This document shows positions 832 through 38,108 of a DNA stretch of 53,655 nucleotides, one piece after another; within the stretch, counting starts at the first letter, position 1; each line of letters opens with the position of its first letter. The notes beneath the pieces are model-generated. The model had not been told where the DNA came from and searched no databases. It saw only the letters and a list, made by a program, of their open reading frames with translations. Source of the stretch: a virus (taxonomy: Duplodnaviria; Heunggongvirae; Uroviricota; Caudoviricetes); IMG/VR virus record IMGVR_UViG_643348545_000009, positions 1 to 53,655 of that record. One strand, 5' to 3'. The translations under genes and the position numbers were made by a program.

Positions 832-2016
832 TTAAAACTCGAAGTTCACACCAACGTTCCAGGAGGCATCGCCATCACTGAATGCCACGCCTGCTTTCGC
901 TGCGGTCTGCTCGTTGAAGCGGTAACCCACACCCACCGCCAGTGCCTGCTGGTCGCTGTAACCACCAACCGCTGCCGTGGCGTTGAATTTACCCACACTG
1001 TACGGCTGGAACAGACCTGTCAGGGCCGCAGACTGTGCTGCTGCACGCTTCATTTCCTTGTGGTTTTCATTAATCTGGCGCTGCTGGCTGTCCAGACGTG
1101 CTGAATGTTGCTGCAGCGTACGGGTATTGGCTGCAATCGCCTTGCTGTTTTTCTCAATGGATTGCGTGTTACGGGTGACACGGCCATCAATGGCACCAAC
1201 TGCTGCATCAATACGGTCAGTACGACCAGACAGGGCCACCAGACCATCGTTAACAGAAATGGTGTTCTTTGCACCTTCTGCACGGGTCAGGGTGCCATCA
1301 GAACTCACACCAACCAGTGTGCGGGATTCGACTTTTGCAGCTGTTGCAGCAGCCGCAGCATCAATCTTGTCGGTACGCGTGGTCAGTTTACCAAGATTTT
1401 GCTTCTGCGCTTCAAGCTCGCCTTTCTGAGCATCAAGCTCATTCGCAACAATGGTGGAGTGGGCGGCCTCCCCTGCCAGATAGCGCTGTAAAGACATGTG
1501 TTCTTCTATTTCACTCGGATCTGCTGCCACATTTCCATACTTATCCAGGCCGACGTTGGTTTTCATCTGCTGGATTGCTGAAACGCGGTTGTACAGGTCA
1601 CGGATATTCTGTTCTGTCAGAAAAACTCCATCATTCTTACGCGCCAACAGTTTATCTTTCCCTGATGCCGCAGTCTTCATAAAATCATGAAGCTCTTTAT
1701 CATAAACAGTAAATGTTGTCGAACCATCCGCAGAGGTAATTGTAACATTACCATTGACATCTATTTTACTTAGCGCCTGAATCGTTTCCCCCCTCTGCGA
1801 TGCTATACTTCCGTCCTGCCCCCATTTTATATAAGCCGTTTTTGTAGCACCATCAAAATATATCCCATACATAGAACCTGAATTACCGTTTTCCGTTTTT
1901 AGCGCAGAATAATCCCCCGTAGCATCCTGTGTATCCTGTGCAAACGATACACAAGGAACAAACAGCGCTGAAAAAACTGCCGCAGACAAAACAGCCTTTG
2001 TAAACTTCTTGCTCAT
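832..2016 (-). CDS. Trimeric autotransporter adhesin with YadA-like C-terminal anchor; Eib-like (immunoglobulin-binding protein) prophage cargo candidate
   Basis: 394-aa ORF; signal peptide [26 protein letters not shown]; long coiled-coil stalk; C-terminus ...[33 protein letters not shown] typical of YadA/Eib beta-barrel anchors; lies just outside the tail fibre genes. Confidence 0.7.
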
Positions 2017-3296: not shown

Positions 3297-4778
3297 TCAG
3301 TATGCGCGCTGGAACAGCCCGATGCCTTCATTGTCATTTGTCGACGTAATTTCATTACACACCATCCATGACCCCGGAACTGAGGATAGGTTGCCGTCAA
3401 TGCCATCGGTGTTAGCTTTCATATAGTTTCCGTTTTCGTCTTTGATTAGGGCGCATCGCTTAAGGCGTGAACCCGATACAGTTTCTCCTGGCTGATAGGT
3501 TCTGCCGATGTCGGTTATATACGGGCCTAGTGCGGCAATAATGTATGTTCCGATGCTGTAAATTTCCCCGGGTACCAGCCTTCCGGTTGGCCCTTGTGGT
3601 CCCTGTGGTCCCTGTGGTCCGGTTTTACCATCCAACCCGGGCGGTCCCATCGGCCCTCGCCCTCCGGCAGGGCCCCGTGGCCCCGGAACACCCTGCGCCC
3701 CCGCTGGTCCCCTTTCACCTCGTGGCCCTGCCGGACCTGCCTTACCTTCCGCTCCGGCGGTACCATCCTTTCCTGCGGGGCCTGCATCACCTTTGGGACC
3801 AGCTGCACCAGCCGGTCCCCGTGGGCCTGCGGGCCCCACTGCACCAGGTGCGCCAGGTTCCCCCCTGTCCCCCTTCGGTCCGGGGACTGCTGCCCGGGTT
3901 GCTGCCTCTTCTGCCTTCGTTTTTGCTGCCTGCACTTCTGCCATTACCGCTTTCACAGCCTTTGGGGTTGCCGCTTTTGTTTCATCATCGCTGTTGGTAT
4001 CGCTGCTCAGCTGTACAACACCTTTCTGTGATGTGCTGGCATCCGGAACACTGGCGACACTGCCTGCGGGACCCGCAGGACCTGTTGCGCCGGGTTCACC
4101 TTTATCCCCTTTCGGGCCGGTTTGCCCTGCCGGACCCTGTGGTCCGGGTGGTCCGGGTGGTCCGGCCTCTCCACGTGGGCCGGTGTCACCTTTCGGCCCC
4201 GGCGGTCCGCCCGGGTCACCTTTATCGCCCTTCGGTCCCTGTGGACCTGTTTCTCCCCGTTCTCCCTTTGGCCCCGGCTCACCTTTTGGTCCGACCGCCC
4301 CCGTTGCCCCGGCTGGTCCCTGTGGCCCTGTGGCACCCTGTGGACCTGTGTCCCCCTTCTCGCCCGCCGGTCCCCGGGCATTCTCTGCCCGTTTCTTCGC
4401 TTCCTCTGCACTCGCCGCCGACGCTTCAGCACGCTTCAGGATTTCCGCTGCCACCGCTTCCAGCTCTGCAAGCGCTTTCGGGTAATACTGCGCCTCATCC
4501 TGTTCCATCAGAAATTTATTCAGCGTTCCCGGCTCAGAATCCGCCTTCACCAGAATGTCACCCACATACGACGGGGCGTACCCTTCCGTGTTCAGCGTCA
4601 CCCGGTACCACCCCGGCTCCACATCAAAACTGTAACTGCCGGTTTCCCCCGGCTGCCCCTGCGCCACCGTGGTGACTATCACTGTCTCTGTGGTGCGTCG
4701 CGCTTTCAGCTCTATGGTGCATCCCGGCACCGGCTTCCCGGTGCCGTCCTTCAGCACGCCCGATATTCTGACTGTCAT
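3297..4778 (-). CDS. stf: Side tail fibre protein (Stf) with collagen-like Gly-X-Y repeats
   Basis: 493-aa ORF; conserved phage tail fibre N-terminal region, then long runs of GPxGxxG collagen-like triplets; ATG at 4776-4778. Confidence 0.85.
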
Positions 4779-10102: not shown

Positions 10103-11017
10103 TCAGTAGCGATGCAGTGAAGGCGGCAACTCTTTGTTCTTAAGCCTTTCCCACGCCAGAAGGTTCGTCGGCCCGTCAGGCTCATAAATATCTATATCCC
10201 GCGTGTGATTAATTAAAACGCCCCTCGCCCTCCCGATGGTATACGAGAACTCATAGCCGTAGTCGTGGCATATGCCGGAATAGCCAGACTGAATCAGTTT
10301 TAATGCGGGATACAACTCACGGAACAATGCCTGTGAGCGGTTAGCATAATCCCATAGCCATACAAGGCTGTTTGCTTCTTTTGCGGAAAGCTCGTTGGTG
10401 CTCTTCTCTTGTTTGCCGATTAACTCTCCTTCAAGCGGAACGCGAGCAGCAAGTGACAGAGCTTCGGTAAACTGCTCCTCGCTGATTTCTTTGTACGAAC
10501 ATCCAAAATGTGATTTCAGTGACGACCACATGGTGATCATCGCCTTCGCCTGTTTTTCCTTTGGCAGAGACTGACCGCGACTCATGACGAGTTGTTTAAT
10601 GGCTTCCTGCTGTTCAGTAGTGATTTTCCCCGGCAACGCCTTTTTAGCTTTCAGTGTATTTCCGTAAGACCCCGTTTTACGAATGGATGGCAAAACTTCA
10701 GCTGTCACCCATTTGCGGAATTTGTGCGGGACTGAACCTTTATTGACGGCATCGCGGCAACGCAGAACCAATGTATACATACCTGATTCGCTCACAATGC
10801 TTAAATTCTGCTCACCACCAAGGGTGTAACTTAAAGTTACTCCCTTTTCATCGTCATCAAGTGCAGTAAGCGCCTTGCGTGAGTTAGTCAGATTTAAAGC
10901 ATCACAAACATCTTTTGCTACAAACCACGGCTCACCGCACTTGTTGATGACGCGGATTTCACTGTCGCCGAATTTGAAGATGGTGAAATCGTTTTGTGCC
11001 TTTGCTATACTTTTCAT
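10103..11017 (-). CDS. ant: Phage antirepressor (Ant; Bro-N N-terminal domain)
   Basis: 304-aa ORF; N-terminal [30 protein letters not shown] resembles Bro-N/antirepressor domain; downstream of an Arc-like gene as in P22 immI. Confidence 0.85.
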
Positions 11018-13066: not shown

Positions 13067-14230
13067 TCAGAACTGATAAGTCATACCAACAGCAACGATA
13101 TCATCCGTTGCAATGCCCGCATCCCTGGTAAACTTATTCTCATCAACCAGATTGATTTTATAATCAACATAGGTGGACATATTTTTATTGAAGTAATATT
13201 TCGCACCTACGTCAACATACTTAACCAAATCCTGGTCACCATAGTTTTTACCACCTACAATGACATCCTGAGCACGAGACTGCAGGAATGCCAGAGATGG
13301 ACGCAGACCGAAATCAAACTGATACTGCAGTACCGCTTCAAAGTTTTGCGCTTTATCTGCAACTCCTTTATCACCAAAGGTCGTCAGATTCTGAGTTTCG
13401 GAATATGTTGTAGCCAGGTAAAGGTTGTCAGCATCGTATTTTAGTCCGACTCCCCACATCTCAGCGTGTTTACCTTTTGCAACACTACCGGAATCAACAA
13501 CGATCTGCTTTTCAGTCACTTTACCGGTTAAAGGATCAGTTTGTTCAATCGTCAGAGTACCATTCAGACCTTTTTCCTGATTATTGGTTCGGTCCGCATT
13601 AATATATGCGGCAACGATACCAAAACCTTCATATTCATAACTGGCTGAGAAACCGTGACCATCACCATTAGCTTTCCGGAGATCACCCCGATCATTTTTA
13701 CCCTGGTACTGTGCCGCAAAATTCAGGCCATCGACAAGCCCAAAGAAATCTGTATTACGATAGGTTAATACCCCGGAAGTACGGGCTGTCATGAAGTTAT
13801 CGGTCTGGGTCCAGCCATCACCGCCAAACTCTGGTAATACGTCAGTATAAGAACCAACATCGTACGCAATACCATAGTTACGACCATAATCAATGGTGCC
13901 AAACTCACCAAACTTCAGACCTGCAAATGCAAGACGGGTTTTATTACCCGCAGCACCCTCTGATTCAGCTTTATTACCAGAGAACTGATATTCCCACTGA
14001 CCAAAACCAGTCAACTGGTCATTAATCTGAGTTTCACCTTTAAAGCCCAGACGTGCGTATGTCTTATCTCCATCATCCCCCTTATCACTGGAGAAATAAT
14101 GGAGTGCAGTTGCACGCCCATACACATCAAGTTTATTGCCATCTTTATTGTATACTTCTGCAGCCTGCGCCCCCGCTGCAAAAATTACAGCTGCTGCCAC
14201 AGCTGAAAGTGCCACTGTCATTTTTTTCAT
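13067..14230 (-). CDS. General porin, OmpC/OmpF/NmpC/Lc family (phage-borne moron)
   Basis: 387 aa; signal peptide ending AQA; porin motifs throughout; C-terminal …VAVGMTYQF aromatic terminus; AAGGA upstream of ATG; AT-rich own promoter region 14231-14436. Confidence 0.9.
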
Positions 14231-19247: not shown

Positions 19248-19964
19248 TTATCCGGCGGCTGCGCTCACAGTCACGGTGCATTCAACAGACGTCACACTCT
19301 GTGCCCTCTCTGCCGAATCGGTCACCACGCAGGTATATTTCCCCGCATCGGCGGACTGCGCGTTTGGCTTACTGAAGGTGTCAGCCGTCTGCCCCTCAAC
19401 CGGCTGACCGTCCTTCTTCCAGGCGTATTTATACGGCGGCGTTCCCCCGTTGACACTGACTGACATTGTCAGCAGCGCACCAGTATTCACGGCAAGTGTC
19501 TTCTCCAGATTTTTCACAAACGCCAGCGGTACCACATAGAACATCGGTTTGCCTTTCAGGCGCAGTGAAAACGTTGCAGCCACCACGCCGTTGGTACCGG
19601 ATGACCAGGTGTGCTGACGCACTTCCGCCAGGAACTTAAAGCCCTTACCGGACGGAAACTGCACCTTAAACGCATACACCGTGTCATTGTCATAGGCATC
19701 ACGCAGGGCGTTCTGGGCCTGATTCAGATAAAAATTACCCGACATGGAAATCTCGGACGACGCCCCCAGACCGTTGATGTTCTCCTGCTCTGTGGAGCAG
19801 AGCGTGGTCACATCAATATCCTGTTTCTGACCGGCGGTGAACTGGACTTCCTTGATGGTGCAGTCCAGGCGCAGATATTCCGCCTTATCCATAGTTTCAG
19901 CAGTCGCCGGGGCAGATGAAATCATCACCTGCGTCAGCTGTGAGCGTTCATACAAAGCAGACAT
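19248..19964 (-). CDS. V: Major tail protein V with C-terminal Ig-like domain
   Basis: 238 aa; C-terminal …TMSVSVNGGTPPYKYAWKKDGQPV…YTCVVTDSA… Big_2/Ig-like pattern; AGGAGG upstream of ATG. Confidence 0.9.
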   Translation of the reverse strand: MSALYERSQLTQVMISSAPATAETMDKAEYLRLDCTIKEVQFTAGQKQDIDVTTLCSTEQENINGLGASSEISMSGNFYLNQAQNALRDAYDNDTVYAFKVQFPSGKGFKFLAEVRQHTWSSGTNGVVAATFSLRLKGKPMFYVVPLAFVKNLEKTLAVNTGALLTMSVSVNGGTPPYKYAWKKDGQPVEGQTADTFSKPNAQSADAGKYTCVVTDSAERAQSVTSVECTVTVSAAAG

Positions 19965-20030: not shown

Positions 20031-20375
20031 TCACACCGTGACCTGAAACTCCAGGGTTGCACGGTAACAGCGGTTTTCCGGAATATAGTCCTGCATTTCA
20101 CTGACGGATCCCGGGGCCAGCGCCATTATGGACTCACGGGCGTCCTGACGTATCTGACGCGCCTGCGTCACAGTCCCGGCATAAACGTCTATCTGCACCG
20201 ACACTGAGGACTCCGCCTGCCCGCCCATCACGTCCGCCGACACCGATGAAATCAGGCTGAAAACCACCCACGGAAGCGCCACCGACGGCCTGCCATCCAG
20301 CAGGGGGACCACATACGGGTACACCTGCCCGCCGGCAAGATGCGCCAGATAAGGATACAAATCCGTCTCCGTCAT
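20031..20375 (-). CDS. Tail terminator / minor tail protein (U position)
   Basis: 114-aa ORF immediately upstream of V; assignment by position. Confidence 0.55.
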   Translation of the reverse strand: MTETDLYPYLAHLAGGQVYPYVVPLLDGRPSVALPWVVFSLISSVSADVMGGQAESSVSVQIDVYAGTVTQARQIRQDARESIMALAPGSVSEMQDYIPENRCYRATLEFQVTV

Positions 20376-20818
20376 CGTCTCAGCACCTCATCAATGGCCC
20401 GGTTCATACGCGCAATTGCCACCTGAGCTGCCTGTTCACTGCGCACATCAAACGCCGGGCGCACAAACGGGTGCGGTGGCATATTCACGGTCCCCATTTC
20501 CACAAACCGCCAGTAGAAAGCATTGCGCGGGTTATCCGCCTTCATGGTGTTATCGCTGTTACCGGTATCCGGATTAACACCACGGATATGGACACCGGAT
20601 TCCATCCCGCCATCGCGGGAGCGCCGGGAAAGGACCACCACATTGCGGCGCAGTTTTCCCCTGCGCACCGGTGCCCGTGACACCACTTCTTCTTTCAGTT
20701 CATTCGCCCCCGCGCGGGTTGCCTCACGCAGTACCCGGTTGTTTTCTGCACCACTCAGAAGCTGCAAATCACGGCTTATTTCTTCAAGTCCCGAAAAATC
20801 CAGCAGGGTTTCGATCAT
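20372..20818 (-). CDS. HK97 gp10-like tail completion protein
   Basis: 148 aa; N-terminus MIETLLDFSGLEEISRDL… and position consistent with gp10 family. Confidence 0.6.
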   Translation of the reverse strand: MIETLLDFSGLEEISRDLQLLSGAENNRVLREATRAGANELKEEVVSRAPVRRGKLRRNVVVLSRRSRDGGMESGVHIRGVNPDTGNSDNTMKADNPRNAFYWRFVEMGTVNMPPHPFVRPAFDVRSEQAAQVAIARMNRAIDEVLRR

Positions 20819-21165
20819 TTTTCCCCTCCCAGCCGACAGAGAATTTCCAGGCGCCCGCCGGTCGCATCCGGCACGGGCACCCCGACAACATTCAGGATAC
20901 AGTCACGCCAGGGACCACTCAGCACATGAAGTCGTGACGCCGCCGTGATTTCCCGACCGGACTGACCGCGCACCCAGATGCGGATTTCCGCCTGCGCCAT
21001 TTCCGCACCGGACTGCATCCGCTCCCGGCTGCTCCTGCCCCGGATATCCGCATGAATTTTCCCGCATGACACCCATTCTTCCGTCATTTCTCCGGCAGCA
21101 TTACGGGTTAACACCGGGTTCAGAATGCTTATCATCTGTGTCAGACGCCCTGCAGAAATTGCCAT
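20815..21165 (-). CDS. Head-tail adaptor / head closure protein
   Basis: 116 aa; ILNPVLTRNAAGEMTEEW… pattern typical of head-tail joining proteins; overlapping stop/start with neighbours. Confidence 0.6.
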   Translation of the reverse strand: MAISAGRLTQMISILNPVLTRNAAGEMTEEWVSCGKIHADIRGRSSRERMQSGAEMAQAEIRIWVRGQSGREITAASRLHVLSGPWRDCILNVVGVPVPDATGGRLEILCRLGGEK

Positions 21166-21174
21166 TCCCCCTCC

Positions 21175-21501
21175 TCATAACACCGTCGGGCAACGCAAAT
21201 CGTAAATCAGCACGGACACAGAAAACGGCAGTTCCCCCTGCACGAGGTCTTCCCGCTCAGCAAGATCCGGATTCCGGTACAACATCCCGGTCAGGCGCAT
21301 GGCAGCCCCCTTCATCCGGGTTAATGCCTCGCCCGGGATCAGTTCACCGTCCTCACGGATCACCCTATCCCGGCTGCCCTGAATGTAGGCCAGCAGCACA
21401 GCTGTAGCCTGACGAACCTTGTCCATCAGCATGTCATCATCCGCGTCATGGTCAACACGCAAATGTGCCTTGATTTCTTCCAGTGTCAGTAATGCCGTCA
21501 T
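21175..21501 (-). CDS. gp6-like head-tail connector protein
   Basis: 108 aa; MTALLTLEEIKAHLRVDHDADDDMLMDKV… typical gp6-like N-terminus. Confidence 0.65.
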   Translation of the reverse strand: MTALLTLEEIKAHLRVDHDADDDMLMDKVRQATAVLLAYIQGSRDRVIREDGELIPGEALTRMKGAAMRLTGMLYRNPDLAEREDLVQGELPFSVSVLIYDLRCPTVL

Positions 21502-22721
21502 TTTCCGCCTCCTGCATCCCGCCCACGTTTTGCAGCCAGAGTCCAGCCGGATGAATGAATGTCTCCGGGCTTATCGCCGGTCATGCTGTTGCAGTGCCAC
21601 AACGAGCCGCCCCACGTCACTGTATCGCCGGGGTGGTAGATTTCACCGGCTCTGAACACACCGCGGTAGAGCATCACCGGCAGGGAAAATGTTTTTTCCG
21701 TACACTGACCACTGCTCTGCCGGATCACCACAGAGAACGACCGTTCACCAATCATGCTGACGTCAATATCCGCCACCCCGTCAACCAGGCATTCCCATCC
21801 CCGCATCCCGTGCGTTTTTTCATACGCCCGCCAGAGTCCGCCCTGGTGTGTGGCATACGTGCCCCGGGGAAAGGATTTTTGATCGTCAATGGCGGGGAGT
21901 ATTTCCAGTGCCGTGGCATCACGCCCGTCCTGCGGAACCGGCAGGGCACTCACCGCATCATTCACCGCCTTCTGCAGTACATCCGGATCGTAGTCACGAC
22001 CATCACGCGGGACTGGGATATGACTTACGGCCTCTTTCACCATCTGCTCAAGCATCGGACGCACATCATCCGGGGTGATACTTTTTCCGTCCGCCGGTAG
22101 CGGAATATTTGCGACCGCATCATTCACCGCCTTCTGCAGTACATCCGGATCGTAGTCACGACCATCACGCGGGACTGGGATATGACTTACGGCCTCTTTC
22201 ACCATCTGCTCAAGCATCGGACGCACATCATCCGGGGTGATACTTTTTCCGTCCGCCGGTAGCGGAATATTTGCGACCGCATCATTCACCGCCTTCTGCA
22301 GTACATCGGGATCATAGTCACGACCGTCGCGCGGAACAGGAATATGGCTTACCGCCTCCTTCACCATCTGTTCAAGCATCGGACGCACATCATCCGGGGT
22401 GATACTTTTTCCGTCCGCCGGTAGCGGAATATTTGCGACCGCATCATTCACCGCCTTCTGCAGAACATCGGGATCATAGTCACGACCATCACGCGGTACC
22501 GGAATGGCCCCCACCGCATCATCCACCATCGCCTGCAGAACAGAGCGAACCTCATCCAGCGTCACATGCTTCTGTAGTACCGCGGACAGGGAAGCCAGTT
22601 TCTCTTCAGACTGCTGCGCCTGCGCGGCTATTTTCCCCTCAAATGTGCGCTGTAAATCCGCCAGCACTGCGGAAAATTCTTCACCCAGCGCACGGATAAT
22701 GGACAGTTCACGTTCATTCAT
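21498..22721 (-). CDS. Virion-associated protein with tandem 54-aa repeats (head decoration or fibre candidate)
   Basis: 407 aa; coiled-coil N-terminus, about 3.3 copies of IPVPRDGRDYDPDVLQKAVNDAVANIPLPADGKSITPDDVRPMLEQMVKEAVSH, distinct C-terminal domain; sits between portal and connector genes. Confidence 0.55.
   Translation of the reverse strand: MNERELSIIRALGEEFSAVLADLQRTFEGKIAAQAQQSEEKLASLSAVLQKHVTLDEVRSVLQAMVDDAVGAIPVPRDGRDYDPDVLQKAVNDAVANIPLPADGKSITPDDVRPMLEQMVKEAVSHIPVPRDGRDYDPDVLQKAVNDAVANIPLPADGKSITPDDVRPMLEQMVKEAVSHIPVPRDGRDYDPDVLQKAVNDAVANIPLPADGKSITPDDVRPMLEQMVKEAVSHIPVPRDGRDYDPDVLQKAVNDAVSALPVPQDGRDATALEILPAIDDQKSFPRGTYATHQGGLWRAYEKTHGMRGWECLVDGVADIDVSMIGERSFSVVIRQSSGQCTEKTFSLPVMLYRGVFRAGEIYHPGDTVTWGGSLWHCNSMTGDKPGDIHSSGWTLAAKRGRDAGGGK
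21955..22500. repeat. Near-perfect 162-bp tandem repeat, about 3.3 copies, in-frame within the 407-aa CDS
   Basis: Unit boundaries (CATTCACCGCC…) at about 21959, 22121, 22283 and 22445; copies nearly identical. Confidence 0.85.
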
Positions 22722-24082
22722 TTTTTCAGAATCCCCCTGAACATCGCCTTCACCGCATCATGCTCTGTTTCAGTGATTGCCTTATTACCGTCAGATGCGC
22801 TGTCAGGCGGTTGCGCTAAGGCCGTTTTCCCGGTCGACGCGAACGGATCCTCACGGGCATCACGACGGGACAGCGCCTCCAGACTGTAGTTCTGCTGCTG
22901 AAGATACAGTGCATCACCTCCCGCAAGGGGCGGCAGGTTCTCACGTTTACGGGCCTCATTGGGCGTGAGAAGCGTATTTTTCACCGACTCACCCAGCGTT
23001 TTCATGCGCCGTTCGCTGTCCATTCTCAGCAGCGTGGTGACGTCAAACTCCGTACTCTCGTTTTCCCCCGTTTCCAGCGCCTCATCCAGTAACAGTTCAA
23101 TGGACTCAATCAGCGTCTGCAGGCACTGGGAATAATACTGCTGCTCCAGCGCCTCCACGTTGTCACTGGAAGGTGGCTGGCCAACGCCAATCTTGTAGGC
23201 CGGGACACGGAACACCGAACAGACAATTTCAGCGGTCATCTTCAGTTGTTCCACCGTCTGCGCATCCACCGGTGAAAACGTCGTGGGGTTGTATTTTGCC
23301 CCGTTGCTCAAAATGGCCGTTTTCCCCGCATTTTCGCCGGTATACCCGCTGTCCCAGTTGCTCTTCAGTTTTTTCGCATTTTCTTCCGTAATACTGCCGG
23401 GGATCTCAATCACCCCGGACGGCCTGCCGCCATTTCTGAAAAAAGACGTCGAATTTTCCTGAATATGATGCCCCTGCGTGGCCGCCAGCCCGGCGGCATA
23501 CACCGGCGGCAGCCCCACAAGCGGATGAAAAAAACAGTTAAACCGGTCGTGGATCACTTCCCGGGCAGGCACCGTCACCGCCTCCGTGATCCCGCAGTTC
23601 CGGTCCGGCGTGATGCGATAGAACACCTCGCCGTCATCCGCCACCAGAGGTTCAACCCGGCTCCAGTCCAGAATACGCAGTTCTTTGATCTGCCCCCGGG
23701 AGTTACGGATTTTCAGCACCACCGTATTGCCGTGACGCAGTTTGGCGTTCAGCCACAGTTCAAAAAACTGGATACGATTCTGCTGTGCATTGGGACGACG
23801 ACAGAGACGGGCAATATCCCCCTGCCGTTTTTCACGGCGGATCCCCTGTGTATCCGTCTGCATCAGGCGCAGCCGCATTTTGGCGATATCCTGGGATATC
23901 AGCGAAATGCAAGAAAACACCGCATGAAAGGAGAGGACACTTTCCGGATCGGCTTTCACACCCTGCTGCCAGGCGCCGGAAAAGGGCTCAGCCACCGCCT
24001 GAAACAGGCTGGTCCAGCCCGCCTCTCTTACGTCACGTCCTGATTTCTGGTTTTTTCGGGTTCGCCGTAAAAGGTTCCACAT
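22718..24082 (-). CDS. Portal protein, HK97 family
   Basis: 454 aa; …NAGKTAILSNGAKYNPTTFSPVDAQTVEQLKMTAEIVCSVFRVPAYKIGVG… matches the conserved HK97 portal core. Confidence 0.85.
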   Translation of the reverse strand: MWNLLRRTRKNQKSGRDVREAGWTSLFQAVAEPFSGAWQQGVKADPESVLSFHAVFSCISLISQDIAKMRLRLMQTDTQGIRREKRQGDIARLCRRPNAQQNRIQFFELWLNAKLRHGNTVVLKIRNSRGQIKELRILDWSRVEPLVADDGEVFYRITPDRNCGITEAVTVPAREVIHDRFNCFFHPLVGLPPVYAAGLAATQGHHIQENSTSFFRNGGRPSGVIEIPGSITEENAKKLKSNWDSGYTGENAGKTAILSNGAKYNPTTFSPVDAQTVEQLKMTAEIVCSVFRVPAYKIGVGQPPSSDNVEALEQQYYSQCLQTLIESIELLLDEALETGENESTEFDVTTLLRMDSERRMKTLGESVKNTLLTPNEARKRENLPPLAGGDALYLQQQNYSLEALSRRDAREDPFASTGKTALAQPPDSASDGNKAITETEHDAVKAMFRGILKK

Positions 24083-24249
24083 TCGCCATGCTCCGCATCA
24101 CGTTTCTTTTTCTGACCTGCCGGACGTCGCACCGTGATGTACTCCGCCTTTCCCAGGCGAACCAGCACCTCCGCACACGGCTGTGCCACATCACGGATAT
24201 CCCTGGCCCGGGCATCATGCGTGCCCTGCAGATATCGGATCTTTGCCAT
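24028..24249 (-). CDS. Hypothetical small protein between capsid and portal genes
   Basis: 73-aa ORF overlapping portal start by 55 nt; no recognisable domain. Confidence 0.2.
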   Translation of the reverse strand: MAKIRYLQGTHDARARDIRDVAQPCAEVLVRLGKAEYITVRRPAGQKKKRDAEHGECGTFYGEPEKTRNQDVT

Positions 24250-24293
24250 AACCTGTTACGGGAGGCGCACGCCTCCCGTCCTCCTTATCAGAC

Positions 24294-26231
24294 TCAGCCG
24301 CCGGACGCACTGCCGTAGTTCACTCCGGTGATCACCGCCACCGCCGCGGTACGGCGACGACGCCAGTTGATCCAGCGCTCCGCACGGATGGCCACACTGC
24401 CTGTCTGGAACATGGAAACCAGCTCCACCGGCGACGGCGTGGTACTGTCGCCGGTCGGCTCAGACTGCATTTCCAGTGATGCCTCGCGGGACATATCCAC
24501 TGCCACGCCGCCGTCATCCGCCAGATAAATATCCGGGGCATTCACCAGCACCAGCTGGTCACCCACGTACTGGGAGACAATCACCGGCAGCCCCTGGAAG
24601 GAGCCACCCAGCAGGGTCATGTCCGGGTATTCTTTCTGACCCAGCGCATTTTTACGCATGGACAGCGCCAGGGCATTGGTGCTGGACATCAGCCAGACAG
24701 CACCAGTGGGCTGCAGGTTTGCTGCCACAAACTGTCCAAACGCCGCCTCTGCATCCGCATCCGGGTTACCGCTTGATGCCGTGCCCTTCACATCATGGGT
24801 GATGGACGCCGGGGAGACATCTGCCACCGCCGCTTTTTTCGGGTCCACAAAGTCTGTATCCAGACGCGCCACCACCGCTTCCGCCAGCGCATTACGGACC
24901 AGTGCATCAGCAGCCGGACTGGAAAAACGGATCAATTCTTCCGTCAGTACCGCAATGGCCGACACCTTCGCATGACTGAAGGTGATGGATTCAAAATCAA
25001 ACTTCGTCAGGGGTTTTGCCTTACCCTCACCCACCCAGCCGGCAGCACCGCCCGACACCTGGGCGTGCACACGGATATTGAACGGCACCTGACGAAGTGC
25101 AGGGATCCCGCCCTGACCAAATCGCCCGATAATGGTCTGAGGACGCAGGTAATCAATAAAGTCCTGTGCGTATTCCTGATATTCAGACAGGCTGCCTGCC
25201 CACTGCGGATCCGTGGTGGTCCCCGCGCCCACTGCCGATTTCAGGACATGATGCAGACGACTGTCATCCGGATACTGACGACGGGCCACTTCCAGGGCTT
25301 CAGAGCGGACACCTTTAGCCGCAGCCAGCGATTTGGCAAAACGTGCGAAACCAATCCCCTTATCCAGTTTCTGCTCCACACGGATCACCGGCGCAGAAGC
25401 CACCGCGGCCACATTCCCGTTACCGGCCTGTTTCACCGGCTGCGCCGTGGCGGCCTTACCGGCTTCCAGTTCACGCAGGCGCTTCAGGTGCGCATCCACC
25501 TGACGTATTTCCGCTGCGGTGTTGTCGTAATGCTCTTCCTCCTCCACATCCAGCGTGCGCCCTTCCTCTGCGGCTTTGGTCATGACCTCCTCAAGGGAGG
25601 CTGCCAGTGCTGCACGCTTGTTTTCAAAACTTTTAATCTGTTCGCCAATATTCATTATGGTCTTTTCCTTATGAAAAACGGTTGTTGACTGTGCCGCAGC
25701 GCCGGCAGAAGATGCGATTTTCACCACCGGTTTCCGGTTGCCGGACGCGGCAGAAAACTGGCGGTCGTAAGATTTAATGGTCCGGATGGTGCATTCCGCA
25801 TTCGCGGGCACGGTGACGGCAGACACCTCCATCAGCTCCCAGCGCAGAAAATGCAGTCCGCCTCCGTCCAGAAAGGTGTATTCATGGGGACGGAAGCCCA
25901 CGGACAGCCCCCTGACCAGCCCGGTCTTAATGGCCGCCCAGGCCTCATCCAGCCGGGCAGCCAGTTGCGATGGCATATCCGGCACGGGCTTCGCCAGTGT
26001 TGCCGTGATTTCCAGCCCTTCGCTGACCCGGCGCACCGTACACTGCCCCACCGGGCGGGAATGGTCATGCTGCCAGAGAAACGGGATCGCACTGCCAAAC
26101 TCCGCGCCCTCCGGCTCCAGGATGTCACCATCCCGATCCGGAGAAGGCGTTGACGCAATCCCGGTGATCACCCGCTCATCCTCACTGAAGGATTTCACCG
26201 TCAGCAGGGAGCAGGCCCGTTTAAGAGTCAC
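24294..26231 (-). CDS. Fused prohead protease (HK97 S78-like) and major capsid protein
   Basis: 645 aa; N-terminal …FLWQHD…GLSVGFRP…VSAVTVPAN… protease-like, C-terminal …GGAAGWVGEGKAKP…ELIRFSSPAAD… HK97 capsid-like; GTG start with AGGAGG 5 nt upstream. Confidence 0.75.
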   Translation of the reverse strand: MTLKRACSLLTVKSFSEDERVITGIASTPSPDRDGDILEPEGAEFGSAIPFLWQHDHSRPVGQCTVRRVSEGLEITATLAKPVPDMPSQLAARLDEAWAAIKTGLVRGLSVGFRPHEYTFLDGGGLHFLRWELMEVSAVTVPANAECTIRTIKSYDRQFSAASGNRKPVVKIASSAGAAAQSTTVFHKEKTIMNIGEQIKSFENKRAALAASLEEVMTKAAEEGRTLDVEEEEHYDNTAAEIRQVDAHLKRLRELEAGKAATAQPVKQAGNGNVAAVASAPVIRVEQKLDKGIGFARFAKSLAAAKGVRSEALEVARRQYPDDSRLHHVLKSAVGAGTTTDPQWAGSLSEYQEYAQDFIDYLRPQTIIGRFGQGGIPALRQVPFNIRVHAQVSGGAAGWVGEGKAKPLTKFDFESITFSHAKVSAIAVLTEELIRFSSPAADALVRNALAEAVVARLDTDFVDPKKAAVADVSPASITHDVKGTASSGNPDADAEAAFGQFVAANLQPTGAVWLMSSTNALALSMRKNALGQKEYPDMTLLGGSFQGLPVIVSQYVGDQLVLVNAPDIYLADDGGVAVDMSREASLEMQSEPTGDSTTPSPVELVSMFQTGSVAIRAERWINWRRRRTAAVAVITGVNYGSASGG

Positions 26232-26294
26232 ATCAGCCTCCTGAAAATAAAAAAACCGCCGCAGCGGTCCATGATGGTTACAGGGTGAACAGGG

Positions 26295-27956
26295 TTATAT
26301 GAAAAAAACCGCATATTCTTTCTTTTTCGGCTCCGGATTCAGGGACATCAGGGATACCGCATTGAAGAGCGCCATCAGCGGGTCAATTTTCCCCCGCCCG
26401 CTGGCCTGTTTGGTAATAAGGATAGCGTTACCTTTAGGCTCCACCCGGGCATTGCCAACGCACCAGGCCATCAGTGGCTGACCACCATGCACCAGTACTC
26501 CCTCAGCCAGTTTGCGCTCGGTGGTTTTTATGGCCCCGCCCAGCTTCCAGCCCTGGCTTATCCCCACCACACTCTCATCGGGGATCCCGGCTTCCGCCAG
26601 TGAATCCAGAATCTGCCCCACGCCTGACGGGTCAATACCGATATGGTCCAGTAACTCAGCCTCATGAATGCGACGCACATACTCCGCCACTTCCGCCGTG
26701 TCATCCCCGACCCGACGGACAATGGTCATATCCCCACAGGCAACAAAATCCTGAAAACGGGCTGCCTCACTTTTTCGTCTGGCCACCGCGGTTTCATGTG
26801 CCCAGGCATGGCCCCAGCCCAGCCATTCGCGGGTCTCCCGGTCACGCCCAATCACATACATCCCCAGCAGATCATCCAGCCCTCCGCCGTCAATCCCCAC
26901 CGTCACCACATCAGCACGCTGCAGAATATCGTCCAGACTGATGCGCCTGCCCTGCTGCTCCCAGAAATCCGCCCCCGCCCAGCGGTCAGAACGCAGGGCA
27001 AGACCAATTTCCACATTGGCGTGTTTTGACATGAAACCGCGAAAAGTCTCTTCACCGGCTTCCCGGGCTTTACGGTACTCCCGGTACAGAAACGCCTCAT
27101 CCACCGAATAACCGAGATTCGGATTGACCATGGCGAGGTTTTCCATCAGCAGGTGCTCACCGCTCTCCACCATCTCCGGCGGATGCTCAAAAATCACCGG
27201 CAGAAAGTGCGGATCATGAATTTTGCCGTCACGCACATCCCGGGCGTACTGCAGTTTCTGCCTGAACACCCCGGCAGGCGGCTCATTCGACTGGGTGGTC
27301 GTATACACCACAAACCCTTCCGGGCGGGAGGCAAGGCCGCCTATGGCTTCACGTAACATGTCCTCCGCCTTGTACTGTTTGCCAAACAGCCATAACTCAT
27401 CAATCAGCGTACCCACGGACTTGATACCGGACACCGTATTCGGATCGGCTGCCACCACCTTCAGGGTGGTGTCCGTCACCCGGTGGGTGATGGTCCGGAT
27501 ATGCGTCTGTACCTGGCAGAGGTCATCCAGATCATCGTCGCGTCGTACCATATCCCGGGCAGGGTTGAAGGCGTTGGCTGCCACCTCCACGGTCGGGGCC
27601 AGAATGGTGTAGCCCGCCGCCTGCCGCCAGTTCAGTAACAGCGCCGTCATCATGATCCCGGCGGCCAGCGTGGACTTGCTGTTTTTTTTAGGTATCAGAA
27701 TGAACACTTCCTTGATATGGCGCACACCGGTCTGCGCATCGTAGGAGCCAAACAGGGCCGCCACCAGGTCAAACACCCACTGTGCACAGGACTCCCCGAA
27801 CGTCGGGCTGCCCGGTGCATCCACAATCCGCAGTTGTTTAAAAATCGCCAGGGCATGTGCGGCCTGCTCCGGATAAATCGGAGCCGGAATAATCGACAGC
27901 CCCTTTTTCAGGCGTACTGCCCAGTCCGGGCAGGCCGTGCTCCACCCTGGTATCAT
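26295..27956 (-). CDS. terL: Terminase large subunit
   Basis: 553 aa; ATPase and nuclease regions typical of HK97-type terminases; start ATG overlaps TerS stop (ATGA). Confidence 0.9.
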   Translation of the reverse strand: MIPGWSTACPDWAVRLKKGLSIIPAPIYPEQAAHALAIFKQLRIVDAPGSPTFGESCAQWVFDLVAALFGSYDAQTGVRHIKEVFILIPKKNSKSTLAAGIMMTALLLNWRQAAGYTILAPTVEVAANAFNPARDMVRRDDDLDDLCQVQTHIRTITHRVTDTTLKVVAADPNTVSGIKSVGTLIDELWLFGKQYKAEDMLREAIGGLASRPEGFVVYTTTQSNEPPAGVFRQKLQYARDVRDGKIHDPHFLPVIFEHPPEMVESGEHLLMENLAMVNPNLGYSVDEAFLYREYRKAREAGEETFRGFMSKHANVEIGLALRSDRWAGADFWEQQGRRISLDDILQRADVVTVGIDGGGLDDLLGMYVIGRDRETREWLGWGHAWAHETAVARRKSEAARFQDFVACGDMTIVRRVGDDTAEVAEYVRRIHEAELLDHIGIDPSGVGQILDSLAEAGIPDESVVGISQGWKLGGAIKTTERKLAEGVLVHGGQPLMAWCVGNARVEPKGNAILITKQASGRGKIDPLMALFNAVSLMSLNPEPKKKEYAVFFI

Positions 27957-28516
27957 CCGTTGCCCTCATTATCGTTATTCACCACCAGGCGGGGTGGTGG
28001 TGGCACCGCAAAACGGTTAGCCGCTTTTTTCGCCGCGTCACCTTTTGCCGATTTTTTACCGGCATCCCCTTTTTTATGGTGCGTGAACTGTGCCAGTCGC
28101 CAGGCCGCATCCAGTGCCAGTTTCGGGTCAATGCTCAGGTTTTCCACCAGGATCCTCCCCATCGCTTTTACCGGATCAGGAAGACCGTCTTCCATGTAAT
28201 CAATACCTGGTAGTGGTGTGAGACTTTGCCGGTCATCAGGCGGCAGTGAAACCGGGGTGTTCTTTTCCGCCGGAGGGGCTTCCTGATGGCACTCCTCCGT
28301 CTGCGTCTTTTTCTGCCGGTAAACAGGAACCTCATCCACCTCCACCGTCTCGCCCTGCTTACGGGCAATAAACGCGAGCACCTCCGGATCTTTTGCCAGC
28401 TGCGAGCCTTTAACCCTGGCGGTCTTCGCCGAATAACCGGCGGCAATGGCTGACGCTGTTTTGTTTTTCCCGGACATGAGCGCCAGCGCAAATTTTCGTT
28501 TTTGCGTTGTCAGCAC
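27953..28516 (-). CDS. terS: Terminase small subunit
   Basis: 187 aa; N-terminal …KRKFALALMSGKNKTASAIAAGYSAKTARVKGSQLAKDPEV… Terminase_2-like HTH; start codon uncertain (GTG at 28516). Confidence 0.75.
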   Translation of the reverse strand: MLTTQKRKFALALMSGKNKTASAIAAGYSAKTARVKGSQLAKDPEVLAFIARKQGETVEVDEVPVYRQKKTQTEECHQEAPPAEKNTPVSLPPDDRQSLTPLPGIDYMEDGLPDPVKAMGRILVENLSIDPKLALDAAWRLAQFTHHKKGDAGKKSAKGDAAKKAANRFAVPPPPRLVVNNDNEGNG

Positions 28517-36119: not shown

Positions 36120-38108
36120 TTATGATGATGCCCGGCTTTCGTTAACTTTGACTGTGACCGTATCAAGCAGTACAGGATACGTCGCTTTTGCCCCCGTGAT
36201 ATCTGTCAGCGTCAGCGTATCTGCTGTAAAGCCATCATTTGTCCACATCACAAGGTCAAACGCCGTCTGCTCTGTACCATCAATTACCGGAACGACTCTT
36301 TCGCTGTTATTTCCCGCAAAGCGGAAAACAACCGTATGCCAGTTATGGTCAAACGCACCAAATGTACCCAGTTGTGCATTCGACGTGCCCTTGTGGTGCA
36401 TAAGATTCAGATTTGATGCATCCGTCTGAAGGAAGAATGATGCCAGCATACTGTTTGCTGCCGCGCCTGACGCCCACTGCGACACCGGCCAGTAGAGACC
36501 AAAGACAAACTGTCCGTTCACCAGTTCGCTTCCATCCGGAATTTTGAACCGTACGGCAATTTCACCCCCCTTGCTGAGAAGATTTTTTGCCTCCTCCACT
36601 GCAACAGTACGGAACATTTTCCAGGACGTCAGTTTACCGGGCTGTTTTTCCAGTCGTAGCGCTTTCCGTCCACCGTCATCAGTCACAGTGCCTTTGCCAC
36701 CGGCAGCCCCCCACTGCTGCTCTGTCCATACACCATTTCCACTGTTCGCATCATATTCAGCCACCGTCCTGGTACTGCTCACGGCCTCATCATGACCAGT
36801 ACCAGCAACACCGCCATCCTGCGGTTTCTCAACACCCGGTACCCCCGGACTGACATCATCACCGGGAGTTGTACCACCCAACTGCGGTGCGCTCTGCCCG
36901 GTAAGGAACGATAATGTCCGCCCGGCGTACTGCAAAATGGCACCTGCCAGGCGGTCTGAAACAATGCCTCTTCGCGCCCATGAACTGAAGTGCGTTTTAC
37001 GATCGGCTGACGTCCAGTTACTGGCAGTGCGTGACGCAGCACCATAGTATCCCGCCGGGATAATGTCCGGATCTTCTGACGGCTCGTTTGTCGGCACATT
37101 CACACCATGCTCATCCGTCATCAACGGCACAAAGAAGATTTTTTTTGCGGATTTCGTCTTGTATGCACCATACACCGCATCGTATTGCGAAGAATAAGTC
37201 TGCTTCCAGTAGTAGGTCGTGTCGCCACAAATCCAGGGAACCGATGACGGAGAGCCCCCGAGACACTGACCTCCGAATTCCGACAGGTCAGAACGATATT
37301 TTTCCACCATGGAATCAAACAGCCCCGGCTGAGTGGCGTATGCACCCTGTTTCAAATCAAACTCGCCCTGCATCCAGACCACTGCAAGCAGAATATTTTT
37401 AGGGTTAGCCTTCAGTGCGGCCTGAGTACGGGTAAGCAGGTCCTTGTACAGTGGCTTATCTACACCCCAGCGTGCCGAGGTCTCGCTTGCGCCGGTGGAT
37501 TCGCTGAAAGTACCTTCATCGCCCTCCAAAAATGCAGAACCACCACGGCAGCACGGAACCAGAAGAATACCGGCATTCGCCGGAATAAACGGCAGCAGTT
37601 TTTTGGCGATATGCAGCCCCTGCCCCACGGTTCCGTACTGCCCCTTTGACAAGTCCGCTTTCGGATGGTTAAGACGGCTCATGTCCTGTACATCATGCAG
37701 ACAATGGTCCGCCGGAATGATGTCGTTATATTTACAGGCGACACCACCCGGTGTCACCGTACTGCGACGCGCCAGTTGCTTAATGCGCGGGTCCGGACGG
37801 TCATATGTCTCCGGCAGCGGCAGCCCTTCACCAAAAGACATTGAGTTTGACTGCCCCGCCAGAACAACAACAAAGTAATACTCCGGTTCGCTGGTGGTGC
37901 TGATAACTGTGCCTTCTCCATCCGACGGCTTCACCACCACAGGTGTGGTGACATCACCTTCCGCCGCAATGGCCTGCATCAGGGTATAAGGCGTGATGGC
38001 GACAGGGCTGCCAAATGGCTGCCACCCCTCCTTCAGTTTTTGTGTCAGTCGCTCCGCAAGGTCTGACGGCGACGCCGCCCTGACCACATCGTAGTGTTTA
38101 AATGTCAT
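36120..38108 (-). CDS. nanS-p: Prophage-encoded sialate O-acetylesterase-like protein (NanS-p-like; DUF1737 N-terminus plus SGNH-type esterase)
   Basis: 662 aa; N-terminal MTFKHYDVVRAASPSDLAERLTQKLKEGWQPFGSPVAI… DUF1737-like; …VVLAGQSNSM… SGNH-like motif; position between Q and lysis genes as in Stx-type phages; GGGAGG upstream of ATG. Confidence 0.8.
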   Translation of the reverse strand: MTFKHYDVVRAASPSDLAERLTQKLKEGWQPFGSPVAITPYTLMQAIAAEGDVTTPVVVKPSDGEGTVISTTSEPEYYFVVVLAGQSNSMSFGEGLPLPETYDRPDPRIKQLARRSTVTPGGVACKYNDIIPADHCLHDVQDMSRLNHPKADLSKGQYGTVGQGLHIAKKLLPFIPANAGILLVPCCRGGSAFLEGDEGTFSESTGASETSARWGVDKPLYKDLLTRTQAALKANPKNILLAVVWMQGEFDLKQGAYATQPGLFDSMVEKYRSDLSEFGGQCLGGSPSSVPWICGDTTYYWKQTYSSQYDAVYGAYKTKSAKKIFFVPLMTDEHGVNVPTNEPSEDPDIIPAGYYGAASRTASNWTSADRKTHFSSWARRGIVSDRLAGAILQYAGRTLSFLTGQSAPQLGGTTPGDDVSPGVPGVEKPQDGGVAGTGHDEAVSSTRTVAEYDANSGNGVWTEQQWGAAGGKGTVTDDGGRKALRLEKQPGKLTSWKMFRTVAVEEAKNLLSKGGEIAVRFKIPDGSELVNGQFVFGLYWPVSQWASGAAANSMLASFFLQTDASNLNLMHHKGTSNAQLGTFGAFDHNWHTVVFRFAGNNSERVVPVIDGTEQTAFDLVMWTNDGFTADTLTLTDITGAKATYPVLLDTVTVKVNESRASS

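Follow-up and report, generated by a model that had tools for sequence, protein, structure and literature searches.

The whiskers of phage T4 are made of fibritin (gp wac), which has an N-terminal attachment region, a stalk of short helical segments with loops and a C-terminal beta domain, and phages SPP1 (gp12) and phi29 (gp8.5) bear on their capsids trimeric accessory proteins of a collagen-like or fibrous nature, the genes for which belong to the head module. Here we describe X, an open reading frame (ORF) at 21498-22721 on the minus strand of the virus stretch IMGVR_UViG_643348545_000009, whose full length of 53,655 nucleotides (nt) is referred to as the window. The window is a lambdoid prophage of the enterohaemorrhagic Escherichia coli (EHEC) type, and X lies in its head and neck module, also on the minus strand, directly behind the portal gene. 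Sequence comparisons indicate that X is a genuine, separately translated gene of the structural module and not a piece of a broken portal gene. We would put at about an even chance the reading in which X is an external, fibre-like protein, that is an accessory fibre of the neck vertex or of the head with a glycan-binding tip.

The tandem array and its variation in length

Tandem Repeats Finder reported a single array of period 162 bp at 21952-22496, with 3.4 copies, 96% matches, no indels and a score of 992, and a separate repeat search gave four in-register copies at a spacing of 162 nt. The array is in frame within X, which is a complete ORF of 407 amino acids (aa) plus stop. Each repeat encodes a 54-aa unit composed of two related sub-modules, one of 25 aa (IPVPRDGRDYDPDVLQKAVNDAVAN) and one of 29 aa (IPLPADGKSITPDDVRPMLEQMVKEAVSH), both of which start with a P-x-P-x-D-G linker and continue with an amphipathic helix. 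Three full units (aa 73-234) are followed by a fourth 25-aa module (aa 235-259). The original prediction of about 3.3 near-identical 54-aa copies encoded by a 162-bp direct repeat was therefore borne out, and the array is coding; the coordinates that it gave to the repeat (21498-22721) are the bounds of the ORF and not those of the array. The unit, which had been described as not recognised, belongs to a very large family of 5,371 clusters and resolves into the two sub-modules; the connection with the portal gene had escaped that prediction.

When the three full DNA copies were compared in pairs, we found differences at 7-10 positions. These correspond to 16 pairwise codon differences at 12 codon positions, all of which are synonymous, and the three units are 100% identical as protein. 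Assuming that roughly one random change in three or four is synonymous, we estimate that such a pattern would occur by chance with a probability of the order of 1e-7 or less. The synonymous nature of all differences between copies indicates that the X frame is translated and is under strong purifying selection, and the ratio of nonsynonymous to synonymous substitution rates (dN/dS) was about 0.27 on the non-repeat parts of X in loci where it is separate from the portal gene.

In a set of 80 related loci from IMG/VR, the homologous ORF came in length classes of 353, 405/407, 461, 515 and 569 aa, in steps of 54 aa. De-duplication left 88 distinct sequences, in which the 405/407-aa class was the commonest (37 sequences), followed by 353 aa (18), 461 aa (7), 299 aa (6), 569 aa (2) and 515 aa (a single sequence), the remaining 17 being of odd length or truncated. 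Expressed in 162-bp units, the range of 299-569 aa amounts to about 1.4 to 6.4 copies. Since the classes of 353, 407, 461 and 569 aa occur between loci whose flanks are 99.9-100% identical, the length of the array must change fast; one 54-aa unit is found in up to 12 DNA versions across loci. The variability in copy number that had been predicted between isolates is thus present, as exact 162-bp steps among related E. coli prophages. The 96%-identical copies would be prone to unequal recombination or to slippage in replication, with the gain or loss of 54 aa as a result, and, each 162-bp copy representing two stalk modules, the length of the stalk would shift with both end domains left untouched. 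We set aside a role of X as a tape measure of head length, given that loci with identical flanks differ by up to 216 aa and that capsid geometry is presumably quantised.

Domain architecture, family and genomic context of X

X can be divided into three parts, all on the minus strand. The N-terminal region (aa 1-72, 22506-22721) holds a long predicted helix and a first module-type helix, modelled by AlphaFold2 (AF2) at low confidence and conserved across Enterobacterales. The stalk (aa 73-259, 21945-22505), as seen from the dissection of the protein and from AF2, is made of seven alternating 25-aa and 29-aa modules, and the conserved C-terminal domain occupies aa 260-407 (21501-21944). The AF2 model of the full-length protein had a predicted local distance difference test score (pLDDT) of 49.5, at which only its secondary structure is usable: helices at residues 2-49 and 54-70, then, in the stalk, one helix of 13-17 residues per module with linkers of about 12 residues, and finally beta strands. 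For aa 255-407, modelled with an alignment of 110 sequences, the mean pLDDT was 82 and exceeded 90 at about model residues 61-140, and the domain has invariant and near-invariant columns across these 110 sequences. It begins with a final P-x-P-x-D-G motif and continues with a beta sub-domain and then a module of the carbohydrate-binding module (CBM) 5/12 type, the core of which (about aa 345-397, 21531-21689) reads YRGVF..GDTVTWGGSLWHC..DKPG..GWTLA.

The assignment to CBM5/12 draws on several comparisons. In a set of 17 diverse C-termini of the family, 16 matched Pfam CBM_5_12 (PF02839) at E values up to 0.1, the best being 3.2e-8, and many homologs of X carry a precomputed PF02839 match. The module is a small beta fold with conserved exposed aromatic residues, as expected for CBM5/12. 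A Foldseek search of the C-terminal model against the PDB gave no match at E <= 1e-3, the top of the list being occupied by the tail fibres of phage 7-7-1 and by CBM5/12-bearing chitin enzymes, and the matches in BFVD were phage proteins that combine collagen repeats with CBM5/12, with E values down to 1e-9. A profile search of the PDB returned only All3316 and chitinases, and we found no solved structure in the PDB with a homolog of the whole C-terminal domain. Full-length X gave nothing in a sequence search of the PDB and only noise in NCBIfam, and it matched neither Phage_portal (PF04860) and TIGR01537, nor Pfam Collagen (PF01391), the window protein being devoid of G-X-Y repeats, nor, in the Pfam scan, the Mu F domain (PF04233). 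Pfam matches of the repeat region to FliG_N, TetR_C_35 and DUF4244 contained no significant stretch and are regarded as noise from low-complexity helices. Several homologs (P0001, P0017 and others) carry the precomputed Pfam accession PF28083.1, and Pfam may already model part of X.

An exhaustive HMMER search found 5,371 clusters (50% identity) at E <= 1e-3 and 622 at E <= 1e-30, and we read the architecture of the best 150 of the 5,371. Among the clusters listed, stand-alone proteins with lengths of 214-600 aa predominate; the match extends to their C-terminus and their number of modules varies. The only clear portal fusions in the list are the E. coli cluster and P0186 (1,237 aa); another long member, P0121 (862 aa), has more than 20 modules and is not fused to a portal. 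The plan common to the family is an N-terminal helix, a variable stalk and the conserved C-terminal domain. Four types of stalk were observed: helix modules as in the window; an 'LPxPEPLPDI' motif plus helix module, repeated about 20 times in P0186, the portal fusion of another lineage; beta-hairpin modules (GVGLAGA.IDR.G.LV.T...G....LG.VVGKDG); and collagen (G-X-Y)n, which is found in the alphaproteobacterial L115, L116 and L117 (Chelatococcus, Phyllobacterium), in at least 15 proteins with a Pfam Collagen match and, as collagen-like tails, in 3 of the 17 diverse C-termini. Judged from these sequences, the stalk is an exchangeable cassette between constant ends. The alphaproteobacterial homologs lack the first C-terminal sub-domain (KSYPRGTYA.H.GGLWRA...GMRGWEC) and keep the last 95 aa or so, comprising a beta hairpin and the CBM5/12 core, which is the universal core of the family.

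The genomic context of X was examined in 38 loci taken from one-genome-per-species contigs of Gamma- and Alphaproteobacteria, including Pantoea, Phytobacter, Pseudomonas, Kluyvera, Morganella, Marinobacter and Haliea as well as Rhizobium, Mesorhizobium, Neorhizobium, Phyllobacterium, Shinella and Qipengyuania. The homolog of X is a separate ORF of 102-556 aa in 37 of the 38 loci, the shortest being cut at a contig end. It directly follows a portal gene or fragment in 34 loci and directly precedes Ad1 in 30, and at least one of these neighbours is present in all 37 loci with a separate X. Wherever the upstream flank was sufficient, the order was terL, protease::capsid, portal, X and Ad1. The start of X usually overlaps the portal stop by 4 nt, and the stand-alone enterobacterial homologs share the start methionine and the N-terminus MNERELS(L/I)IK... 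The two-gene arrangement is the ancestral and normal one, and the fusion seen in E. coli is derived and mostly specific to that species.

In the window, the HK97-family portal gene (454 aa, 22718-24082, minus strand; Pfam Phage_portal 4e-81, TIGR01537 2e-106) lies upstream of X and overlaps it by 4 nt in an ATGA at 22718-22721 that combines the portal TGA with the ATG of X, similar overlaps being present in most of the loci from other genera. A second ATGA, at 21498-21501, joins the TGA of X to the ATG of the gp6-like head-tail adaptor Ad1 (21175-21501, minus strand; Pfam Phage_connect_1, phrog_40), which is the gene directly downstream. Through these overlaps the translation of X would be coupled to that of the portal gene upstream and of Ad1 downstream, and this coupling suggests a low copy number for X, similar to that of the portal-vertex proteins.

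Portal fusion, rival explanations and the position of X

Of 5,426 complete E. coli genomes, 1,246 (about 23%) contain relatives of the locus, often in many copies, with a median of 6 matching places per genome, although one repeat-bearing locus may yield several BLAST places; relatives are also present in 93 deposited phage records, mostly of phages converting to Shiga toxin (Stx) production and including long-tailed Stx1, Stx2a and Stx2c phages. Two forms of the locus exist. X and the portal are two ORFs in the window, in phage BP-4795 (Stx1) and in the O157:H7 strain F6321, and they form one portal-X ORF of 859 aa in phage 2851 and in the complete genome of the O26:H11 strain FWSEC0001. The 859-position 'portal protein' profile of PHROGs corresponds to the portal ORF at positions 1-451 and to X at positions 455-859, and in the 859-aa fusion of phage 2851 the portal profile spans only residues 45-388. 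The difference between the two forms resides in a G run at the 3′ end of the portal gene (22733-22737, minus strand, in the window), given as 12 codons before the portal stop: five G result in two genes and six G, as found in relatives, in the 859-aa fusion. An A6 run at the stop/start junction, the other candidate for the switch, was ruled out by sequence comparison.

Exact-pattern counts in IMG/VR gave 99 stretches with the G5 junction and 42 with the G6 junction, so that about 70% of the E. coli relatives are split and about 30% are fused. Some G5 and G6 loci match at every position of the 700 nt upstream, of 210 nt in the N-terminus and of 420 nt in the C-terminus, and such near-identical alleles indicate that the run toggles repeatedly, even though some of the G5/G6 differences in draft assemblies may be homopolymer miscalls. 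The dN/dS values of the non-repeat parts were 0.27 in two-gene loci and 0.26 in fused loci, which corresponds to similar purifying selection on both forms. As in contingency loci, a polymorphism in tract length between otherwise identical alleles changes the gene product, and both states are found in complete genomes and in isolated phages; in tract length, however, the run differs from such loci, having only 5 or 6 G in place of the 7 or more that are usual for switching at high frequency. Apart from E. coli, only its closest relatives (Pantoea, Phytobacter) have the G run.

No single name for X has become established, and those used in databases include portal protein, frameshifted portal pseudogene, gp6-like connector and carbohydrate-binding protein. 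The label given to the two-gene form by RefSeq and its Prokaryotic Genome Annotation Pipeline (PGAP) is 'phage portal protein, frameshifted' (e.g. L001, L257), and several GenBank phage records (e.g. L003) call the X locus a pseudogene. In other genera, homologs that stand alone bear the name 'gp6-like head-tail connector protein'. The frameshifted-portal and gp6-like connector labels look like errors of annotation transfer.

Several other explanations can be weighed against these data. Long near-identical repeats are a known hazard of short-read assembly, and the repeat count in the window, being that of the assembly, could in principle have been collapsed or expanded. We regard such an artefact as unlikely, to the point of giving it hardly any weight, since the 7-10 positions at which the DNA copies differ make each of them distinguishable in assembly, the identical 407-aa protein is recorded under two accessions in the finished genome of E. 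coli ED1a, 407 aa is the modal class among the 88 distinct relatives, and the query aligns over its full length and without gaps to complete genomes. That a frameshift could have inactivated the portal gene, with X as its remaining 3′ half and the prophage defective at this locus, is what the PGAP label and the GenBank pseudogene calls imply, and portal function was scored as defective in the Sakai prophages Sp6, Sp9 and Sp12 and as intact in Sp10 by Asadulghani et al. (PMC2669165). However, two genes are the rule across many genera, the upstream ORF contains a complete portal domain (Pfam positions 2-321 of 321, TIGR01537 positions 2-343 of 343), X is intact in most two-gene loci with a dN/dS of 0.27, and the repeat copies differ only by synonymous changes. 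Phage BP-4795, which has the two-gene form, is reportedly infectious according to its original description. Sp6, which shares a 'slightly different' head organisation with Sp9, Sp10 and Sp12, is still transferable to K-12 (PMC2669165), and the scoring of its portal function as defective may or may not go back to the portal/X split. A broken portal gene is thus already contradicted by the present data, and we see next to no chance of its being correct. Another way of joining the two frames would be a -1 ribosomal slip on A-GGG-GG in G5 phages, yielding a minor portal-X fusion as in lambda G/GT or T7 10A/10B. Such a slip would read ..RG-DSEKMNERELS.., exactly the frame of the G6 fusion, in E. 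coli loci the X frame runs without a stop for 12-16 codons ahead of its ATG, and every two-gene variant examined in E. coli retains the five G. Most of the distant relatives, however, have neither a homopolymer nor a canonical slippery heptamer at the site (..AGAGGA..), and the length left open upstream in the X frame ranges from 0 to 39 codons; neither a slippery site nor an overlapping open frame is thus conserved across relatives, and a conserved programmed frameshift is not supported. The conserved ATG, the conserved N-terminus and the ATGA overlap suffice for expression, and a stimulatory RNA structure was neither seen nor sought. Frameshifting in G5 phages appears to us quite improbable.

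The position of X in the virion is the question on which the evidence is most divided. As an external fibre, X would be an elongated, probably trimeric molecule with an anchor helix, a segmented stalk and a beta domain. The N-terminal helix probably anchors it at the portal vertex or the head, the stalk of short helices and Pro/Asp/Gly linkers would hold the CBM5/12-type tip away from the virion, and the tip would bind a glycan and so aid reversible adhesion to polysaccharide. The collagen stalks of the homologs point to trimers, and by extension the same may apply to X of the window; we infer the trimer formation, the virion position, the ligand and the adhesion role alike. The fibre protein proposed in the original prediction is supported by the modular stalk, by the homologs with collagen stalks and by the CBM5/12-type end domain, but its surface exposure is less well founded, as the fusion to the portal leaves room for an internal location. 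Several observations weigh against an external fibre. At a pLDDT of 49.5, the full-length model leaves the coiled-coil or trimeric nature of the helix modules to inference, and X of the window alone scores 22.7 bits (E 1e-4) against CBM_5_12, the gathering score of which is 26.2. Within the protein, conservation is highest in the C-terminal domain, where E. coli and marine or soil relatives share about 50% identity, and such conservation would be unusual for the tip of a host-specific receptor-binding protein. The literature and database searches turned up neither virion proteomics nor microscopy nor a solved structure for any member of the family, and the literature search yielded no paper on X, on its repeats or on the portal-X fusion. 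Finally, X is fused in frame to the C-terminus of the portal in about 30% of E. coli relatives, among them phage 2851 and complete genomes in RefSeq. This terminus of the portal points into the capsid, and an internal position would be a better fit to fusions that are under selection (dN/dS 0.26).

X could accordingly be an internal head protein located on the portal crown, comparable in function to the C-terminal barrel of the P22 portal or to the portal-bound gp7 of SPP1, with the repeats setting the length of a projection into the DNA-filled, reportedly prolate, head. In every lineage examined, the X gene comes immediately after the portal gene and its translation is coupled to that of the portal, in-frame fusions are common in E. 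coli (42 against 99 stretches) and under purifying selection, and an independent long fusion has arisen in another lineage (P0186). Long-tailed particles with elongated heads have also been described in Sakai cultures (PMC2669165) and for an Stx2c phage (PMC12029490), although the head modules of these phages may be of another type. Against such a location, a stalk of the collagen type and a tip of the CBM5/12 type are characteristic of the external fibres of phages, and X resembles neither the Mu F / SPP1 gp7 family nor portal barrels. Beyond E. coli, fusions are seldom seen (about 2 of the best 150 of the 5,371 clusters), and they can be accidental, since a +1 insertion anywhere in the last 12-16 codons of the portal gene merges the two frames. 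They would also be tolerable, as twelve fused copies would by our estimate take up far less than 1% of the capsid volume. We consider an internal protein the main alternative, clearly less likely than the external fibre. In a further hypothesis, to which we attach little likelihood, the G run could act as a heritable toggle, with G5 giving a free glycan-binding fibre and G6 a polypeptide welded to the portal C-terminus and drawn inside the capsid. If this were true, G6 would withdraw the fibre from the surface or create an internal axial structure anchored on the portal, its length set by the number of repeats, and two mutable tracts, the homopolymer and the tandem array, would together generate diversity in virion architecture among the many related prophages that pathogenic E. 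coli carry.

Recognising X as a separate gene corrects a systematic pseudogene call that feeds judgements on which EHEC prophages are defective (PMC2669165). Read as an external fibre, X is a candidate for an adhesion fibre that undergoes rapid changes in length among phages with no other difference, and BP-4795 (two genes) and 2851 (fused) would form a natural pair in which to study its location and function. None of this overturns established views of phage structure.

The remainder of the prophage and comparison with known systems

On the minus strand, the genes around X are ordered as small terminase (assigned from its position alone), large terminase, protease::capsid fusion, a 73-aa ORF, portal, X, Ad1 and the head closure protein Hc1, followed by a gp10-like protein, the tail completion protein gp17 and the major tail protein. 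The prohead protease and the major capsid protein form a single ORF of 645 aa at 24294-26231 (minus strand), with Peptidase_S78 at aa 48-153 and Phage_capsid at aa 386-635. In this region (20031-28516) the fusion precedes the portal gene, whereas the order is usually portal, protease, capsid, and the arrangement is kept from E. coli to Rhizobiales, with two separate ORFs in a few loci. The 73-aa ORF (24028-24249, minus strand) occupies the gap between capsid and portal genes, overlaps the portal start by about 55 nt and has no Pfam match; an ORF at the same position is annotated as a hypothetical protein in RefSeq and in phage records.

The major tail protein (19248-19964, minus strand) has a C-terminal Ig-like domain (Ig_2/I-set, E 1e-9), which is probably another surface-displayed, carbohydrate-adhesion module in the same virion. 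The window also encodes the tip attachment protein J, a tape measure protein and a RecE-like exonuclease VIII, as well as a separate side tail fibre with collagen repeats (3297-4778), beyond which, towards the edge of the window with the low coordinates, lies the gene for a YadA-like membrane anchor protein of the trimeric autotransporter adhesin type (832-2016, minus strand). Within the tail-gene region, a full-length Gram-negative porin gene (13067-14230, minus strand; Porin_1, E 2e-139) and a gene of the Bro-N/P22 antirepressor type (10103-11017, minus strand) look like moron insertions. At 36120-38108 (minus strand), a protein combines DUF1737, a SASA esterase domain and DUF6645, which we take to be of the NanS-p type. 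Two weaker tandem repeats were detected, one of 21 bp in 4.0 copies with 67% matches at 51076-51159, inside the RecE-like exonuclease VIII gene, and one of 27 bp in 2.0 copies at 28020-28073, inside an ORF (27953-28516) upstream of the large terminase gene.

When X is set beside described proteins, the overall design of T4 fibritin appears similar, and by analogy its place among the neck genes and the low copy number expected would agree as well. The two show no detectable sequence similarity, however, whether through Pfam, PHROGs function names or PDB sequences; fibritin ends in a 30-aa foldon, whereas X ends in a CBM5/12-type domain of about 140 aa, and the helix segments of X, unlike those of fibritin, are uniform modules of 13-17 aa joined by a conserved P-x-P-x-D-G linker. 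The collagen-repeat fibres with CBM5/12 (uncultured Caudovirales proteins in BFVD, Pa193 gp47 and the 7-7-1 fibres) carry the G-X-Y repeats that X of the window lacks, and they are encoded in the tail-fibre module, while X belongs to the head and neck module beside the portal. Compared with the CBM5/12 domains of chitinases (2D49, 2RTS, 1ED7, 1AIW), the module of X lies inside a larger domain of about 140 aa with an extra beta sub-domain, which is missing in the alphaproteobacterial homologs. The C-terminal barrel of the P22 portal and the SPP1 gp7 / Mu F proteins share with X a linkage to the portal, as the next gene or as a C-terminal extension, along with a tolerance of fusion to the portal, but they have no similarity to it in sequence or domains, and the architecture of X is of the external-fibre type. 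SPP1 gp12 and phi29 gp8.5 are made to match capsid sites and are not coupled to the portal gene, and no homology with X was detected. The closest functional analogies are the fibritin whiskers of T4 and the CBM-bearing phage fibres. X would be of a known kind, a modular phage fibre with a carbohydrate-binding tip, whose sequence is already in the databases; the features that had remained uncharacterised are its coupling to the portal gene, its fusion through the G run and the strictly conserved repeat of helix modules.

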